Below are positions 6,549 to 9,755 of a stretch of DNA of 16,973 nt, in pieces (the stretch's first letter is position 1; the number at the start of each line of letters is the position of its first letter). The stretch lies in IMG/VR virus record IMGVR_UViG_2529293240_000008, positions 1 through 16,973 of that record. One strand, written 5' to 3'. Below the pieces are notes generated by a model. The model ran no database searches and was not told the DNA's origin. It saw only the letters and a program-made list of their open reading frames with translations. The translations under genes and the position numbers were made by a program. This stretch comes from a virus. Its lineage: Duplodnaviria; Heunggongvirae; Uroviricota; Caudoviricetes.

Positions 6549-6661
6549 GTCGAACCTCCTTTGGTTCTTTTGTTTATAGGGATCAAAAGGATAACTGAAG
6601 GATGGTTCGGCACCAACAAGTACGAATGTGCGGAATCTTAAAAGAATTTATCCGTAAGGAG

Positions 6662-7375
6662 ATGGCAGTGAACACCGCAATTTTTAACGACAAAGTATCC
6701 ATGACCAGCGTTGAAATCGCAGAGCTGGTTGGAAGTCAACACGGCAATGTCAGAATATCAATAGAGCGTCTGGCAAAACGCGGGGTGATTCAACTTCCTG
6801 CAATGCAAAAAGTTGAGAACGAACAATCATTTAGCCAAAACAAATTCACAAACGCATATATTTTCGAAGGCGAACAAGGCAAACGCGACAGCATCATTGT
6901 CGTCGCACAACTTTGCCCGGAATTCACTGCCCGCCTGGTAGATCGTTGGCGCGAACTGGAAGAGCAGGTGCGCAAACCAATGAGCGAAATCGAAATGGTT
7001 GCCGCGATGGCTCTTGAAGCCGTTCGTCAGCAAAAACGCCTCGACAAGATGGAAGAAAAAGTCAGTCACGTTACTGAAACTGTCGAACAAATCAAAAGAG
7101 GCACCATCCGCGATGGTTATGCAGGCTACCGTCAGCTGGTGGCGGAAACGGGTATGTCAGATGCGAAATGCCGCAATCTGGTGAACATCTATCAAATTCC
7201 AACTGATACTCACGAATTTCTTACTCCGGACGGATTGTTGTCACGCCGCGCAATTGTTGCAGTGGAACCGTTTATGGCTGCTTTCCATCGTATGATGAGC
7301 GAAGCGGAACCGAGAGGAACTCGTTGGTATCACCCGAAAATGGGGCTGTTCCAGGCGCTGGGCTGGCAGGGGTGA
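6662..7375 (+). CDS. Rha/AntA-family phage regulatory (antirepressor-like) protein
   Basis: N-terminal ...TSVEIAELVGSQHGNVRISIERLAK... matches the Rha/AntA N-domain pattern. Start is uncertain (ATG 6662, GTG 6668 or ATG 6602); AAGGAG at 6656-6661 fits the GTG best. Confidence 0.7.
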   Translation: MAVNTAIFNDKVSMTSVEIAELVGSQHGNVRISIERLAKRGVIQLPAMQKVENEQSFSQNKFTNAYIFEGEQGKRDSIIVVAQLCPEFTARLVDRWRELEEQVRKPMSEIEMVAAMALEAVRQQKRLDKMEEKVSHVTETVEQIKRGTIRDGYAGYRQLVAETGMSDAKCRNLVNIYQIPTDTHEFLTPDGLLSRRAIVAVEPFMAAFHRMMSEAEPRGTRWYHPKMGLFQALGWQG

Positions 7376-7394
7376 CGATGTTTACGGGTAATTT

Positions 7395-7568
7395 ATGCAA
7401 GTCCTCAATCGCTGGTTCCGTGACGGAAGGGGGCGTCGTGTTCACGTTATACGCTGGGAGCCTGAAACACAGCGGGTTATTTATCTGCGTGATGGTTATC
7501 CATATGAATGTTTCAGCCCGTTGTGGTTGTTCAGGCGTGATTTTGTTGAGTGCGAAGCGCCGCCATAA
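7395..7568 (+). CDS. Candidate small ORF (57 aa, Arg/Trp-rich)
   Basis: ATG at 7395 to TAA at 7566-7568 (MQVLNRWFRDGRGRRVHVIRWEPETQRVIYLRDGYPYECFSPLWLFRRDFVECEAPP); no clear RBS; below the ORF-track size cutoff. Confidence 0.2.
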   Translation: MQVLNRWFRDGRGRRVHVIRWEPETQRVIYLRDGYPYECFSPLWLFRRDFVECEAPP

Positions 7569-7589
7569 TAACGGCGCGATAATGGAAAT

Positions 7590-7898
7590 TTACACGAAGC
7601 GGATCTGGAGTTTTTTCCCTGTTGCGCGTGCAAATTTTTTCAGTGTGGCAAATGATGGTCCGCTGACACCTGAGGCAAGATTGCTTTCCATTCTGGTGAT
7701 GGCGGTTGCTTTGGTACCCATGCGTTCAGCAACTTCAGCCTGGGTGAGACCAGCTTCTTTGCGTGCGGCCAGCATTTCATCAAGCAGTGCGAACTCGTCG
7801 GCGATGGCGTCGTATTCTGCTTTAAAAGCCGGGTCATCCATCCATTTAGCTGCCATTTCATCGTGTGTCATGATTGGTGGGTTACGTTTACCAGTCAT
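7590..7898 (-). CDS. HigA-like antitoxin (XRE-type HTH)
   Basis: 102 aa; ...AGLTQAEVAERMGTKATAITRMESN... HTH; GGAGG RBS 7 nt upstream; start overlaps the stop of the upstream toxin gene by 11 bp. Confidence 0.75.
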   Translation of the reverse strand: MTGKRNPPIMTHDEMAAKWMDDPAFKAEYDAIADEFALLDEMLAARKEAGLTQAEVAERMGTKATAITRMESNLASGVSGPSFATLKKFARATGKKLQIRFV

Positions 7899-8217
7899 GC
7901 TTAACCTCCTTCATTCTGGTTTCAGCTTTTTTACGCTCAGCTGGTGGAGTTTTTTGAGTTTTCTTGATGAAGCTGTGCAGCATGATGATGCGCTTCCCTG
8001 TCAGTGTGCAGTAAAAAACGCGGGCAATGCCATCGCTGCCTTTAATCCGAAGCTCAAAAAGCCCATCACCAAAGGCGCTGGTGTGAGGTTCTCCGAGATT
8101 GCTGCCGTATACCTTCATGCGTTCAACAAGATGCTGGTATCTGGCACGCATACTCAATGGAAGCTGATCGACCTCCAGTCGGACCTCTTCACTGTAGTAT
8201 TCGATAGTGTAGTTCAT
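7888..8217 (-). CDS. HigB/RelE-superfamily toxin (Gp49-like addiction-module killer protein)
   Basis: ...LGEPHTSAFGDGLFELRIKGSDGIARVFYCTLTGKRIIMLHSFIKKTQKTP... is the characteristic HigB/Gp49 pattern. Toxin-first order typical of higBA. Start is uncertain: the track extends to 8253 with a TTG; Met at 8217 gives 109 aa. Confidence 0.75.
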   Translation of the reverse strand: MNYTIEYYSEEVRLEVDQLPLSMRARYQHLVERMKVYGSNLGEPHTSAFGDGLFELRIKGSDGIARVFYCTLTGKRIIMLHSFIKKTQKTPPAERKKAETRMKEVKHDW

Positions 8218-8254
8218 ACAGCAAAACATAACAAAATCGTTATATCTGCACAAT

Positions 8255-8320
8255 ATATTGATTCTGCAATTTCGGGACGTTACACTGTCTCTGCACCTTA
8301 TAAAGCGGGTGCCGGGATTT
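8255..8320 (+). repeat. Direct repeat copy A (~62-66 bp, one mismatch versus copy B) carrying a sigma70-like promoter
   Basis: ATATTGATTCTGCAATTTCGGGACGTTACACTGTCTCTGCACCTTATAAAGCGGGTGCCGGGATT; near-identical copy at 8911-8976. Confidence 0.9.
8259..8287 (+). promoter_or_regulatory. Sigma70-like promoter of module 1
   Basis: TTGATT (8259-8264), 17-nt spacer, TACACT (8282-8287). Confidence 0.5.
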
Positions 8321-8350
8321 GCACCCCGGAATTGTCAACGGCGATATACG

Positions 8351-8370
8351 ACGCGCCAGCGTCTTTTTTA
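8351..8370 (+). terminator. Attenuator-like intrinsic terminator in the module 1 leader
   Basis: GACGC-GCCA-GCGTC hairpin followed by TTTTTT, about 65 nt downstream of the promoter and upstream of the structured RNA. Confidence 0.45.
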
Positions 8371-8394
8371 TCGTCCGCGCTCACGCACGCCAGA

Positions 8395-8510
8395 ATTATG
8401 GTGGGCTGGGCAGGGGAGCCGAAAGGCTCGCCGGTCTCCGTTGACGCCGGTAGTGCAAACCCTGTTCAGTCCGCCACCAGCGAGATTTGCACCTCCGGTG
8501 GTGGAAGTTT
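8395..8510 (+). ncRNA. Candidate C4/CI-type antisense regulatory RNA, copy 1
   Basis: Conserved core shared with copy 2; GNRA hairpin GAGCC-GAAA-GGCTC (8417-8430); hairpin loop CTCCGTTGAC (about 8437-8446) complementary to GTCAACGGAG at the RBS of the downstream gene (8518-8527) and to GTCAACGG upstream (8335-8342). Confidence 0.45.
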
Positions 8511-8535
8511 TCCACAGTCAACGGAGGCTGCCATC

Positions 8536-8898
8536 ATGGCTACAGTCCCAACCCACTCATTCCTCAAAATTGAGACCGTCAACGGCAAGGCCGTTATTTT
8601 CTCTTTGCATGTGGCCTGCCACTTTAAGCGCATGCACCAGAACATCGTAGACAAAATCGAGTATCTGAACTGCTCGCGCGAATTTTTTACCCGCAATTTC
8701 ATACCGGGTACTTACCACATCTATGACGACTCTCTGCGTGGTTATTACATCACCCTTGATGGTCTGATGCTGCTTCAGCTTGGGTTAAGTCTGCGCACAA
8801 TGCGGTACTACGAGAGTTGCATTGAAGCGTTCCATGAGGCTGAAACCGTCCAGGTGCATTCCGCTTTCCGTCGTCATCAACGGGAGGTGCACCTATGA
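8536..8898 (+). CDS. Rha/AntA-domain phage regulatory protein (120 aa), module 1 cargo
   Basis: ATG 8536 with GGAGG 8 nt upstream. N-terminus MATVPTHSFLKIETVNGKAVIFSLHVACHFKRMHQNIVDKIEYLNCSREFFTRNF parallels the module 2 protein. Confidence 0.7.
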   Translation: MATVPTHSFLKIETVNGKAVIFSLHVACHFKRMHQNIVDKIEYLNCSREFFTRNFIPGTYHIYDDSLRGYYITLDGLMLLQLGLSLRTMRYYESCIEAFHEAETVQVHSAFRRHQREVHL

Positions 8899-8910
8899 TC
8901 CGCTACCTGA

Positions 8911-8976
8911 ATATTGATTCTGCAATTTCGGGACGTTACACTGTCTCCGCACCTTATAAAGCGGGTGCCGGGATTG
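8911..8976 (+). repeat. Direct repeat copy B carrying a sigma70-like promoter
   Basis: Same sequence as 8255-8320 with a single T/C difference. Confidence 0.9.
8915..8942 (+). promoter_or_regulatory. Sigma70-like promoter of module 2
   Basis: TTGATT, 17-nt spacer, TACACT, identical to module 1. Confidence 0.5.
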
Positions 8977-9003
8977 GCGTCCTGAAATTCAATATAGAGC
9001 ATA

Positions 9004-9025
9004 ACCGCGCTCATGCGGTTTTTTC
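9004..9025 (+). terminator. Attenuator-like intrinsic terminator in the module 2 leader
   Basis: ACCGC-GCTCAT-GCGGT hairpin followed by TTTTTT; different sequence from module 1 but the same position and architecture. Confidence 0.45.
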
Positions 9026-9050
9026 GTGTCATGAGCATTGCTACGCCCAA

Positions 9051-9146
9051 ATTATGGTGGGGCGTGCAGGGGCATCGCAAGATGCGCCGGGTTCTATGTT
9101 GACCGGTTACGCCAACCCTGTACGTCTCACCACCTCTGTGATTGGC
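9051..9146 (+). ncRNA. Candidate C4/CI-type antisense regulatory RNA, copy 2
   Basis: GNRA hairpin GCATC-GCAA-GATGC (9072-9085); loop CTATGTTGA (9094-9102) complementary to TCAACATAG at the RBS of the downstream gene (9172-9180) and, with one G-U pair, to TCAATATAG upstream (8989-8997). Confidence 0.45.
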
Positions 9147-9191
9147 GTCCCATGTGATGAGTTCTTTGAATTCAACATAGGGGCTGTCACC

Positions 9192-9755
9192 ATGACTACT
9201 CTCCCAACCCTCTCTCAACCTGAAATTGCCATCGTTGATGGTCAGGCTGTTACTTCATCCCTGGCTGTTGCTAACTTCTTCTCTAAACGTCATGACGATG
9301 TTCTGAAAAAGATCCGCATTTTGGATTGTTCTCCAGAGTTTTGTGCCCGCAATTTTGCGGAGACATCAATTTTGGTACGCCAGCCCAACGGCGGTACTCG
9401 CAAACTTCCCTGCTACCAAATCACCCGCGACGGCTTCGCCTTCCTTGCTATGGGCTTCACTGGTAAACGTGCCGCCCGGTTCAAAGAGGCATACATCAAT
9501 GCCTTTAACCAGATGGAGAGGAGCTTATCAGGAGCTGGTGCGGCTGACATGTCATCTGTCGCACAAAACGCCAGAGGCGTATACCTGCATTTGCGTGAAA
9601 TCCATCAAATCTGGACAAGCCAGCTTTACCCAATGCTTAAGGCCGTTGAATCTCCGCTGGCTGGCAAACTGTACGACCGTGTAGGTGATGCTGTTTTTGG
9701 TGCTGCACTTGTTGATTCCAGGCTGAATGGTTCTGACAAGGAGGTGCGCCCATGA
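9192..9755 (+). CDS. Rha/AntA-family phage regulatory (antirepressor-like) protein (187 aa), module 2 cargo
   Basis: ATG 9192; N-terminus MTTLPTLSQPEIAIVDGQAVTSSLAVANFFSKRHDDVLKKIRILDCSPEFCARNF (Rha/AntA pattern). Confidence 0.75.
   Translation: MTTLPTLSQPEIAIVDGQAVTSSLAVANFFSKRHDDVLKKIRILDCSPEFCARNFAETSILVRQPNGGTRKLPCYQITRDGFAFLAMGFTGKRAARFKEAYINAFNQMERSLSGAGAADMSSVAQNARGVYLHLREIHQIWTSQLYPMLKAVESPLAGKLYDRVGDAVFGAALVDSRLNGSDKEVRP

Follow-up and report, generated by a model that had tools for sequence, protein, structure and literature searches.

The window considered here, namely, the whole stretch of 16,973 nucleotides that was analysed, contains a gene encoding a CI-like repressor (positions 5089-5784), a cro gene ending at position 6184 and an O-like gene starting at position 9966, the latter two being separated by 3.78 kb, in agreement with the approximately 3.8 kb given in the initial annotation. 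There, this interval was described as an array of three paralogous genes presenting a Rha/AntA-type pattern, each with its own control, that replaced cII. The three ORFs, at 6662-7375, 8536-8898 and 9192-9755, do exist. They do not, however, form a plain array, since a minus-strand gene (6255-6548) is inserted between cro and the first, a DUF4222 ORF (7395-7568) and a minus-strand Gp49/HTH_3 toxin-antitoxin-like pair (7590-8253) lie between the first and the second, and two IsrK-like and two C4-type RNA genes are also found within the region. In line with the initial annotation, in which no cII-like gene was visible, profile searches revealed no match to a cII model among the ORFs between cro and the O-like gene. 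Replacement of cII nonetheless holds in terms of position only, with related phages of the same immunity type sharing a cro-roi-cassette-O layout. A member of a PHROG family labelled 'CII-like regulator' is encoded at 4396-4944 on the minus strand, left of cI.

All three ORFs score on Rha models. With the Pfam Phage_pRha model (cutoff 29.9), gene 1 scored 31.8 bits (E 2.2e-7), gene 2 fell just under the cutoff at 29.3 bits (E 1.3e-6) and gene 3 scored 94.6 bits (E 5.6e-27), while the PHROG assignments were PHROG 63, 'anti-repressor Ant' (gene 1, 150 bits), PHROG 995 (gene 2, 188 bits) and PHROG 821 (gene 3, 347 bits). HMM searches for AntA and KilAC/ANT domains gave no match at E<=0.01 in any of the three proteins, such that the Rha part of the proposed label stands but the AntA part is not supported. 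Gene 2 (8536-8898, plus strand) encodes 120 residues, of which residues 23-103 are covered by the Pfam match, and so is indeed essentially the Rha domain alone. Gene 3 (9192-9755, plus strand) encodes 187 residues comprising a Rha domain and a helical C-terminal part, with only a sub-threshold match to P22_AR_C. In an AF2 model of this protein (mean pLDDT 76.8), a predicted beta-beta-alpha-alpha-alpha-beta-beta N-terminal domain is followed by long helices. The C-terminal parts differ among all three proteins, as was originally noted.

Despite these shared scores, the three ORFs cannot be treated as equal members of one paralog family. True paralogy holds for genes 2 and 3 (38% identity over 109 residues, E 4e-20), whereas BLASTP detected no significant pairwise match between gene 1 and either of them, their kinship thus appearing to be at the superfamily level only. 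Gene 1 (6668-7375, plus strand), assigned here to GTG 6668 rather than to position 6662 on the basis of the annotated start of a RefSeq homolog, shares 78% identity with a phage PhiR49_2 protein annotated as Roi. No Rfam match, and hence no RNA switch, was detected upstream of gene 1. To judge from its sequence, gene 1 stands apart as a Roi-type member of the early right operon, lying outside the RNA-controlled cassettes described below.

Each of the other two Rha genes is the last element of a cassette that comprises a promoter-like site, an IsrK-like RNA with a terminator, a C4-type RNA, a leader and the Rha gene itself, all on the plus strand. In cassette 1, a promoter candidate read from the sequence (TTGATT-17 nt-TACACT, 8258-8286) precedes an IsrK-like RNA (8293-8369; 61.8 bits and E 2.2e-11 with Rfam RF01394, whose gathering score is 50), which presents targets a1 (8318-8324) and b1 (8334-8341) complementary to the C4 loops and is closed by an intrinsic terminator with a stem at 8350-8363 and a T run. 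The C4-type antisense RNA (8394-8481; matched over its full length by Rfam RF01695 at 80.1 bits, cutoff 45, E 1.1e-14) has a predicted fold of -50.7 kcal/mol, exposing a b' loop (8435-8446, UCUCCGUUGACG) and an a' junction (8453-8459, GUGCAAA). The leader targets (8486-8527) follow, with a2 at 8486-8492 and b2 at 8517-8527, the latter taking in the Shine-Dalgarno sequence GGAGG (8523-8527), 8 nt ahead of ATG 8536.

Cassette 2 repeats this arrangement with a period of 656 nt. The promoter candidate (8914-8942) is of the same sequence, and the IsrK-like RNA (8949-9025; RF01394, 61.9 bits, E 2e-11) contains a1 at 8974-8980, b1 at 8989-9000 and a terminator with a stem at 9003-9020 plus a T run. 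The C4-type RNA (9050-9137; RF01695, 80.1 bits, E 1.1e-14; predicted fold -46.0 kcal/mol) presents a b' loop at 9091-9102 (GUUCUAUGUUGA) and an a' junction at 9109-9115 (ACGCCAA), and differs from its cassette 1 counterpart in the stems by compensatory changes. The Rfam matches of both cassettes extend over the full models and clear the gathering scores by a wide margin. Here, the leader targets span 9142-9182 (a2 9142-9148, b2 9172-9182), and b2 overlaps the Shine-Dalgarno sequence AGGGG (9179-9183), again 8 nt ahead of the start codon, ATG 9192. Both promoter candidates lie within a 79-nt direct repeat (8255-8333 and 8911-8989; 92% identical, spacing 656 nt) and are identical not only to each other but also to those of three Escherichia coli O121 cassettes. 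The candidate matches the consensus at 8 of 12 positions and was not flagged by a consensus scan, although it aligns with TTGACA-17-TATATT ahead of Gifsy-1 isrK, a promoter of experimentally shown activity (PMC4825925). A second direct repeat, GGAGGTGCNCCNATGATCCGCYAC, is found at 8883-8906 and 9740-9763 and marks the point at which a cassette was joined on, ahead of the gene usually located after Rha; in the second copy, the same ATG serves as start of the downstream gene (9752-9985).

The initial annotation likened the three genes to inter-prophage induction or anti-immunity arsenals. On this reading, they would be antirepressor genes forming an arsenal in the place of cII, under ordinary promoter or protein control and aimed at CI-type repressors of the same or other prophages. 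The Rha scores of all three proteins, the appearance of 'anti-repressor' among the PHROG labels, the lack of a cII-model match between cro and O and the private control elements of the cassettes all agree with such a proposal. Those control elements are, however, RNAs rather than proteins and serve genes 2 and 3 only, gene 1 being without both an RNA switch and detectable similarity to the others. Moreover, other genes interrupt the supposed array, AntA and KilAC domains were not found, and the 'CII-like regulator' family member left of cI also speaks against the proposal, which is thus unlikely. What survives is the idea of individual control, which holds for genes 2 and 3 more strongly than had been proposed, and the likeness to anti-immunity systems, carried by an immI-type RNA switch at genes 2 and 3 and not by three paralogs in one array. 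The earlier observation is confirmed in part and its interpretation is supported in part.

The two switches show distinct pairing specificities. When scored for contiguous pairs, each b' loop reached 8.5-11 with its own b1 and b2 and 5-6 with those of its neighbour. Specifically, b2 of cassette 1 formed an 11-bp antiparallel match with its own loop (score 10.5, as compared to approximately 5 for the neighbouring loop), while in cassette 2, b1 scored 11.0 and b2 scored 10.0 (11-bp match) with their own loop, as compared to 5 for b2 with the cassette 1 loop. Likewise, the predicted loop-leader duplexes were of -18.8 (cognate) versus -6.7 kcal/mol (crossed) for cassette 1 and of -12.1 versus -7.9 kcal/mol for cassette 2. 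Crossed pairings, although weaker, still amounted to -7 to -10 kcal/mol. Because the a and b sequences differ between the cassettes yet match within each, each C4 RNA should silence its own kind only, and the prophage would therefore hold two separately locked effectors, and so two immunities.

The same pattern is seen in a near-identical E. coli O121 prophage that carries a three-cassette array. Cassettes A and B of this array, each of 660 nt and aligned without indels, are identical over their 3' 273 nt; in the stretch from transcript start to Rha start codon (alignment columns 55-300), every one of the 24 differences maps to a1, b1, b', a', a2 or b2, or else belongs to a single compensatory pair within the IsrK hairpin. 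In a survey of IMG/VR viral contigs that yielded 91 non-identical C4 elements, the b' loop matched its own upstream site in 89% and its own downstream site in 92% of the elements (score >=7), with foreign loops reaching this score in 7-10%. In the same survey, b2 ended exactly 8 nt ahead of a start codon in 61 of 109 cases, and b' was conserved at positions 3-4, corresponding to the anti-Shine-Dalgarno part, and hypervariable at positions 8-12. Across the C4 family, compensatory changes were found in 12 of 27 pairs.

The region assigned here to RNA is annotated in databases as encoding an "Ash family" protein, raising the possibility that Ash is a genuine domain, that Ash-Rha fusions (8239 to 8898 and 8895 to 9755) are the real products and that the Rfam matches fall inside coding sequence. 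Each of the two long frames is open and continues in phase into its Rha gene, the Pfam model Phage_ASH gives 41-55 bits, proteins of 219 or about 280-290 residues are called by PGAP and in most database entries, and ATG 8895, which overlaps the gene 2 stop codon, follows a good Shine-Dalgarno sequence. Frames across the RNA region are, moreover, open in 71% of cases, as compared to 15% in shuffled sequence, although part of this openness reflects the depletion of stop triplets in all frames (5.8 vs. 8.7). By contrast, codon-position variability shows no third-position excess in the leaders (0.197/0.213/0.205 and 0.125/0.117/0.098), unlike in the adjacent coding sequences of gene 2 (0.034/0.032/0.103) and gene 3 (0.070/0.051/0.158). 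The excess in gene 2, set against the flat leader profile, speaks for ATG 8536 being the gene 2 start codon. Furthermore, neither the length of the b' loop (10, 11 or 12 nt) nor the interval between the C4 AUG and the start codon downstream keeps to the frame (mod 3 = 50/33/11), stem changes are compensatory at the level of RNA pairing, and the supposed Ash ORF contains a promoter-like site and an intrinsic terminator. In Gifsy-1, the overlapping orf45 shows no conservation at the amino acid level (PMC4825925). Fusion proteins as the true products are, accordingly, very improbable.

It is thus proposed, with a probability of about three in four, that positions 8258-9755 comprise two tandem, self-contained IsrK/C4 anti-immunity cassettes. 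The cassette is of a type known from P1/P7 immI and Gifsy-1 isrK-anrP, here duplicated and equipped with Rha effectors. By analogy, transcripts from each cassette promoter would probably end mostly at the IsrK terminator, with C4 RNA probably arising from those that read through. Pairing of b' and a' with b2 and a2 would then probably mask the ribosome-binding site and prevent synthesis of the Rha protein, in cis as well as in trans, whereas a surplus of the short IsrK-like RNA would, via a1 and b1, probably titrate the C4 loops and allow translation. In Gifsy-1, the promoter, terminator read-through, a processed C4-sized RNA (STnc1160) and the dependence of downstream antirepressor translation on IsrK were shown experimentally (PMC4825925). 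As the published model has IsrK activate translation via orf45 coupling and does not feature C4 occlusion of the effector ribosome-binding site (PMC4825925), and as the counterpart of orf45 in the window forms one continuous frame with Rha, details of the mechanism may differ from Gifsy-1. Translation of the leader may also matter, given how often the frame through the RNA region is kept open.

Less probable, albeit possible, is that the RNA switches are real but that the Rha proteins, instead of being antirepressors, bind DNA and regulate lytic growth or replication in the manner of HK022 Roi and phi80 Rha, or that the whole cassette is mainly a means of defence, or of counter-defence, directed at satellites and other phages. 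For the gene 3 product, the N-terminal domain is predicted to comprise a helix-turn-helix-like unit and, after it, a beta hairpin, although no fold match supported a specific DNA-binding family. In the viral-contig survey, genes for Bro-N, P4-type derepression and Tad2-like anti-defence proteins were also found to be preceded by C4 elements. On the other hand, P1 Ant, one of two experimentally studied effectors of homologous switches, does act as an antirepressor or prophage inducer. The same is true of Gifsy-1 AnrP, a characterised effector from another domain family (ORF6N by domain search here) (PMC4825925). DNA-binding repressors are found among Bro-network proteins (PMC10111431), and IsrK-C4 systems of lambdoid prophages have been suggested to act against satellites (PMC3632133). 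On the preferred reading of the cassettes as anti-immunity devices, the Rha proteins would most likely be regulators favouring lytic development or counteracting a repressor.

Among known systems, HK022 Roi and phi80 Rha would resemble gene 1 only, by way of the Roi-annotated PhiR49_2 protein and the Phage_pRha match; in PhiR49_2, Roi directly follows cro, whereas in the window the minus-strand gene intervenes. According to the literature, P4 (seqA - CI RNA - seqC) and N15 (CA RNA - icd - antA/B/C) likewise rely on a processed C4/CI-type RNA that pairs with repeated targets on both sides of its own gene, and the Rfam C4 and isrK models reportedly detect CI and seqA relatives (PMC10111431, PMC3632133). 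The effectors of P4 and N15 differ from those of the window, and the outcome in P4 is premature transcription termination of replication genes. Another known system is Gifsy-1 isrK - orf45 (STnc1160) - anrP, in which the promoter, IsrK with its terminator, C4-type RNA, leader and effector occur in the same, alignable order, the a'/a1/a2 sequence is that of cassette 2 (UACGCCAA / GAUUGGCGUC) and the Shine-Dalgarno sequence again lies 8 nt ahead of ATG. Yet, b' specificity differs, AnrP, an ORF6N protein, shows no sequence similarity to gene 3, the orf45 stop overlaps the anrP start while the equivalent frame in the window enters the Rha gene without a stop, and the single Gifsy-1 locus adjoins the Q-like gene instead of being placed between cro and O. 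No description of tandem, orthogonally specified arrays of the IsrK/C4 type was found in the literature searched. In P1/P7 immI (c4 - icd - ant1/ant2), a C4-type RNA is likewise encoded within the leader of the operon to which it belongs, with a' and b' complementary to upstream a1/b1 and downstream a2/b2 copies and b2 covering the ribosome-binding site of the ORF that comes first downstream. There, too, specificity depends on a small number of bases, which change together in RNA and targets, as Citron & Schuster reportedly found in 1990 for P1 versus P7. The Rfam C4 model matches the window RNAs at 80 bits. In the window, by contrast, b2 lies directly on the effector Shine-Dalgarno sequence with no separate icd ORF, the effector is a Rha-domain protein rather than a P1 Ant homolog, and the cassettes stand in tandem, twofold here and threefold in E. 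coli O121, with differing specificities, between the cro and O genes of a lambdoid prophage.

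The window includes the part of a lambdoid prophage that governs immunity and replication. Encoded here are a CI-like repressor that includes an S24 peptidase part (minus strand, 5089-5784), a Cro/YdaS-like protein (5912-6184), an O-like initiator (9966-10880), a DnaC-like loader and a DnaB-like helicase. The initial annotation had described the approximately 3.8 kb between cro and the O-like gene as lacking a cII-like gene and as containing three paralogous Rha/AntA-domain genes, each separately controlled. The gap measures 3.78 kb, no ORF within it matches a cII model, and the three ORFs are indeed present, namely, gene 1 (6662-7375), gene 2 (8536-8898) and gene 3 (9192-9755). 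The same interval contains a PHROG 4753 gene with a hairpin terminator (6255-6548, minus strand), a DUF4222 ORF (7395-7568) and a Gp49/HTH_3 toxin-antitoxin-like pair (7590-8253, minus strand). Just left of cI, the product of a minus-strand gene at 4396-4944, an HTH_3 protein, scored 262 bits against a PHROG family labelled 'CII-like regulator', such that a cII-type function may, judging from this match, exist outside the cro-O interval. A perfect 11-bp hairpin at 6224-6248 lies 3' of the minus-strand gene at 6255-6548 and only 40 nt past cro. Given this position, rightward transcription from the cro promoter must cross the hairpin and run antisense to 6255-6548 before reaching gene 1.

Elsewhere in the window, group II intron RNA matches were found at 669-782 and 1460-1535 (D1-D4, 81.8 bits; domain V/VI, 57.8 bits), together spanning only about 870 nt and adjoined by an IS66 transposase fragment (18-335). 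As no Pfam family was matched by the two ORFs checked between these matches, the intron may be ORF-less or degraded. At the other end stands an antiterminator Q gene and, after it, four tRNA genes, for Met, Arg, Thr and Gly; past these, a DUF6538-type ORF and a minus-strand IS3-type element are found where late genes would be expected (13663-14589 and 14704-16601). A second IS3-type element is present at 2980-4136. The prophage appears to be interrupted by insertion sequences.

When the three proteins were compared with Pfam Phage_pRha (PF09669; gathering score 29.9 bits), gene 1 (31.8 bits) and gene 3 (94.6 bits) scored above the cutoff, whereas gene 2 (29.3 bits) fell 0.6 bits below it. Gene 2 nonetheless scored 188 bits against PHROG 995 and is a paralog of gene 3, with the two sharing 38% identity (pairwise E 4e-20). 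The proposed paralogy does not extend to gene 1, which shows no significant pairwise similarity to either of the others and is instead 78% identical to a PhiR49_2 protein annotated as Roi, encoded directly after cro in that phage. AntA (PF08346) and ANT-KilAC (PF03374) domains, also invoked previously, were not matched by any of the three proteins at E<=0.01, the sole related match in this search being to P22_AR_C in gene 3 (17 bits, under its cutoff of 22.4). Likewise, separate control could be assigned to genes 2 and 3, each of which stands in a cassette containing IsrK-like and C4 RNAs, and not to the Roi-type gene 1. The initial observation was partly confirmed, and its interpretation found partial support, in that what the region really contains is two tandem Rha cassettes under IsrK/C4 control and, besides these, an unrelated Roi-type gene.

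Searches of PDB sequences with gene 1 and gene 3 returned no match. The predicted structure of the gene 3 product comprises a helix-turn-helix-like unit and a beta hairpin followed by long helices, a model for which no significant PDB match was obtained. The homologs of gene 3 listed are close relatives only (at least 75% identity), nearly all annotated with an 'Ash' extension. That the Rha proteins serve as antirepressors or lytic regulators is proposed with low confidence.

The two cassettes, which lie within 8258-9755, contain C4 antisense RNAs at 8394-8481 and 9050-9137, each scoring 80.1 bits on Rfam RF01695, where at least 45 bits, a long outer stem, two inner hairpins and a 3' ACCA-type tail were sought. 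Both copies cover model positions 1-87 of 87 with no non-canonical pairs flagged, and in both the outer stem is followed by a CACCA-type 3' tail. Upstream of these, IsrK-like RNAs are found at 8293-8369 and 8949-9025 (Rfam RF01394, 61.8 and 61.9 bits, where at least 50 bits and an intrinsic terminator at the end were sought), with intrinsic terminators at 8350-8369 and 9003-9025. The Rfam c4-a1b1 model (RF03163) reached only 23.9 bits against a threshold of 46.7, at 8936-8988, a region already under an isrK match. Together with genes 2 and 3, these RNA genes form two tandem units with a period of 656 nt, each ordered as a promoter-like site, the IsrK-like RNA with its intrinsic terminator, the C4 RNA, some 55 nt of leader and the Rha start codon. 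Each unit is headed by a conserved site, TTGATT-17-TACACT, that aligns with TTGACA-17-TATATT before Gifsy-1 isrK; these promoter candidates, not called by a consensus promoter scan, rest on that alignment and on conservation. The small ORFs at 7395-7568 and 9752-9985 are of the DUF4222/PHROG 1343 and 1153 type. The latter begins with ATGATCCGCYAC, as does the head of cassette 2 (repeat 8883-8906/9740-9763), and this repeat marks the joint of cassette insertion.

Inspection of the C4 RNAs revealed complementarity between two of their elements, the loop (b') and the junction (a'), and targets both in the IsrK-like RNA (b1 and a1) and in the leader (b2 and a2). In cassette 1, b' (UCUCCGUUGACG) is complementary to 8517-8527, a stretch taking in the Shine-Dalgarno sequence GGAGG (8 nt ahead of the gene 2 ATG, 8536), as well as to 8334-8341 within the IsrK-like RNA, while a' (GUGCAAA) finds its match, UUUGCAC, at 8486-8492 and 8318-8324. 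Cassette 2 differs from cassette 1 in every pairing element, with b' (GUUCUAUGUUGA) finding its targets at 9172-9182 and 8989-9000 and a' (ACGCCAA) at 9142-9148 and 8974-8980. Cognate b' pairing involves 8.5-11 contiguous pairs and loop-leader duplexes of -18.8 and -12.1 kcal/mol, as compared to 5-6 contiguous pairs and duplexes of -7.9 and -6.7 kcal/mol for the crossed combinations. These values come from loop-only comparison, used in place of whole-RNA C4-target duplex prediction, which was dropped as uninformative because the C4 stems are melted. A b2-like site at 4230-4240, covering a GGAG that lies 7 nt ahead of the ATG (4248) of a PHROG 6104 gene, scored 10.0 for the cassette 2 loop; this match is probably due to chance, with about 0.3-2 such matches being expected in the window by rough estimate. 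Sequence analysis having defined the anatomy, RNA family membership, cognate pairing and coding limits of the cassettes, the mechanism proposed, by analogy to known C4 systems, is that C4, acting in cis and in trans, would hide the ribosome-binding site of the Rha gene, that the IsrK-like RNA would compete for the C4 loops, and that each cassette would answer to its own RNA only.

A near-identical prophage in E. coli O121 (99.6% identity over the two cassettes) carries three cassettes in a row. Its cassettes A and B, each 660 nt long, align without indels. Across columns 55-300 of this alignment, which begin at the transcript start and reach the Rha start codon, 24 differences are seen, all of which fall in a1, b1, b', a', a2 or b2, or in one compensatory IsrK-hairpin pair; a further 17 occur early in the Rha coding sequence, while the last 273 nt are identical. 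With RNAs and leaders that differ only at pairing sites and in one compensatory pair, these cassettes amount to a specificity swap made by nature, one that is open to direct testing. In the window, the toxin-antitoxin-like pair at 7590-8253 (a HigB-like Gp49 toxin and an HTH_3 antitoxin) occupies the place of a BRO-N gene and the third IsrK/C4/Rha cassette of the O121 locus (3008-4488 of that locus). At its left edge, the array has a swap point. Among complete E. coli genomes, no high-identity match was found to the toxin-antitoxin pair together with the two cassettes; the best covered 81% of the query at 88% identity.

The pairing scheme was also considered in IMG/VR viral contigs retrieved with a structure-anchored pattern, yielding 91 non-identical C4 elements. 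Using a score of at least 7, b' matched its own upstream site in 89% of elements and its own downstream site in 92%, as compared to only 7-10% for loops of other C4 elements. The downstream site ended exactly 8 nt before a start codon in 61 of 109 cases. Within b', positions 3-4, the anti-Shine-Dalgarno part, are conserved, whereas positions 8-12 are hypervariable. Alignment of 37 diverse C4 sequences revealed compensatory changes at 12 of 27 pairs and almost no broken pairs. On these grounds, together with the O121 comparison, the RNAs and the pairing scheme are under selection. The proteins encoded downstream of the 91 elements included Rha (19), Bro-N (17) and P4-type derepression (10) proteins, as well as ORF6N, P22 antirepressor, Tad2-like (3 distinct) and many small proteins. 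Tad2-like here denotes a Thoeris anti-defence domain, so that, with the 'Derepression' proteins, the same RNA switch gates quite different effector classes.

The start codons of genes 2 and 3 bear on how this region is annotated in databases. RefSeq describes the equivalents as a 219-residue 'ash family protein' and a 286-residue Rha protein, and Pfam Phage_ASH (PF10554) matches the conceptual translation of 8239-8535 and 8895-9191 (41-55 bits), a stretch corresponding exactly to promoter, IsrK, C4 and leader. When variability at codon positions 1/2/3 was compared over 28-29 distinct relatives, values of 0.034/0.032/0.103 were obtained for the Rha coding sequence of cassette 1 and 0.125/0.117/0.098 for its leader, with the corresponding values for cassette 2 being 0.070/0.051/0.158 and 0.197/0.213/0.205. 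The third-position excess of the Rha coding sequences is thus absent from the leader. Moreover, loop and spacer lengths vary out of frame, and the reading phase of the Ash-matched stretch is not conserved. This contrast in periodicity and these out-of-frame lengths support the previously assigned starts at 8536 and 9192 and argue against 'Ash' being a conserved protein; rather, it looks like a translation of RNA genes. Some open frame does cross the region in 71% of elements, as compared to 15% of shuffles, an excess that is due partly to general depletion of stop triplets and partly to shared ancestry. Translation of part of the region may nonetheless matter, given that Gifsy-1 expression requires orf45 to be translated. 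Where the name 'Ash' came from was searched for in the literature without result. An annotation problem follows, in that a Pfam family and RefSeq name covering over a thousand database proteins coincide with two RNA genes; the true Rha start codons would lie about 100 codons downstream of those annotated.

Of 5,426 complete E. coli genomes, 88 contain at least 80% of the two-cassette query, and in at least 10 of 87 viral loci with the cassette promoter the copies number two or three, spaced 656 nt apart. None of the 23 arrays among the surveyed loci contains cassettes that share a b' loop, a finding that is suggestive and not statistically significant, given that only some 11 distinct array types are represented. 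Across elements, a' and b' alleles reassort, with 64 b' loops and 25 a' junctions appearing in 81 combinations. One reading, to which a probability of about 0.3 is assigned, is that tandem cassettes reflect an arms race between lambdoid prophages, fought with combinatorial RNA 'lock and key' elements, in which a' and b' would decide which resident silences which incoming or co-resident antirepressor-type gene, and stacked keys, sometimes on the same effector, as in O121 A and B, would widen immunity and hinder silencing of a prophage's own effector by rivals. More speculatively, translation entering the leader from an upstream gene (ATGA overlap at 8895) might override the RNA lock in lytic growth. 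Were the cassettes orthogonal, a single prophage would possess, besides its CI repressor, two immunity specificities based on RNA. Where a strain houses many prophages, as do Shiga-toxin-producing E. coli, in which the cassette is common, this would shape which of them can induce or silence which others.

The arrangement resembles immI of P1 and P7, where C4 a' and b' are likewise complementary to upstream a1/b1 and downstream a2/b2, targets are duplicated, b2 lies over a ribosome-binding site and specificity is set by a few co-varying bases. In P1/P7, however, a separate small ORF between c4 and the antirepressor, icd, is the one whose translation is repressed. The present cassettes are without it; no ORF lies over C4 except one that reads in frame into the Rha gene without a stop, and b2 lies on the Rha genes' own Shine-Dalgarno sequence. 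The effector domain is Rha rather than that of P1 Ant, which inactivates the C1 repressor. Release of C4 from the leader by RNase P processing is known from P1/P7 only.

Gifsy-1 presents the same RNA layout, with isrK and C4 followed by anrP. There, the promoter and incomplete termination at the end of IsrK, a processed RNA (STnc1160) matching C4, IsrK-dependent translation of AnrP and AnrP-driven prophage induction have been experimentally shown, with expression needing translation of part of the region, orf45 (PMC4825925). In Gifsy-1, the stop codon of orf45, which lies over C4, overlaps the effector start (AUGA), providing translational coupling. By contrast, the equivalent frame in the window is fused to the Rha genes, each of the AUGs at 8398 and 9054 being separated from its Rha ATG by 138 nt, or 46 codons, that read in frame without a stop. 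Such fusion was seen in 41 of 103 modules and Gifsy-1-type overlap in 3. AnrP is, moreover, an ORF6N protein (Pfam, 72 bits) unrelated in sequence to gene 3 (BLASTP E 0.14), and Gifsy-1 reaches 48.1 bits on c4-a1b1, as compared to 23.9 for the window. The Rfam C4 and isrK models also detect P4 CI and seqA elements, and C4/isrK-type RNAs have been noted within the 'Bro network' genes that prophages and satellites carry (PMC10111431, PMC3632133, PMC7313666). In light of these published occurrences and the downstream proteins in the survey, a single cassette is already known in kind. Tandem, differently specified cassettes were not described in the open-access literature searched, and the pair may be a new architecture of this known cassette type.
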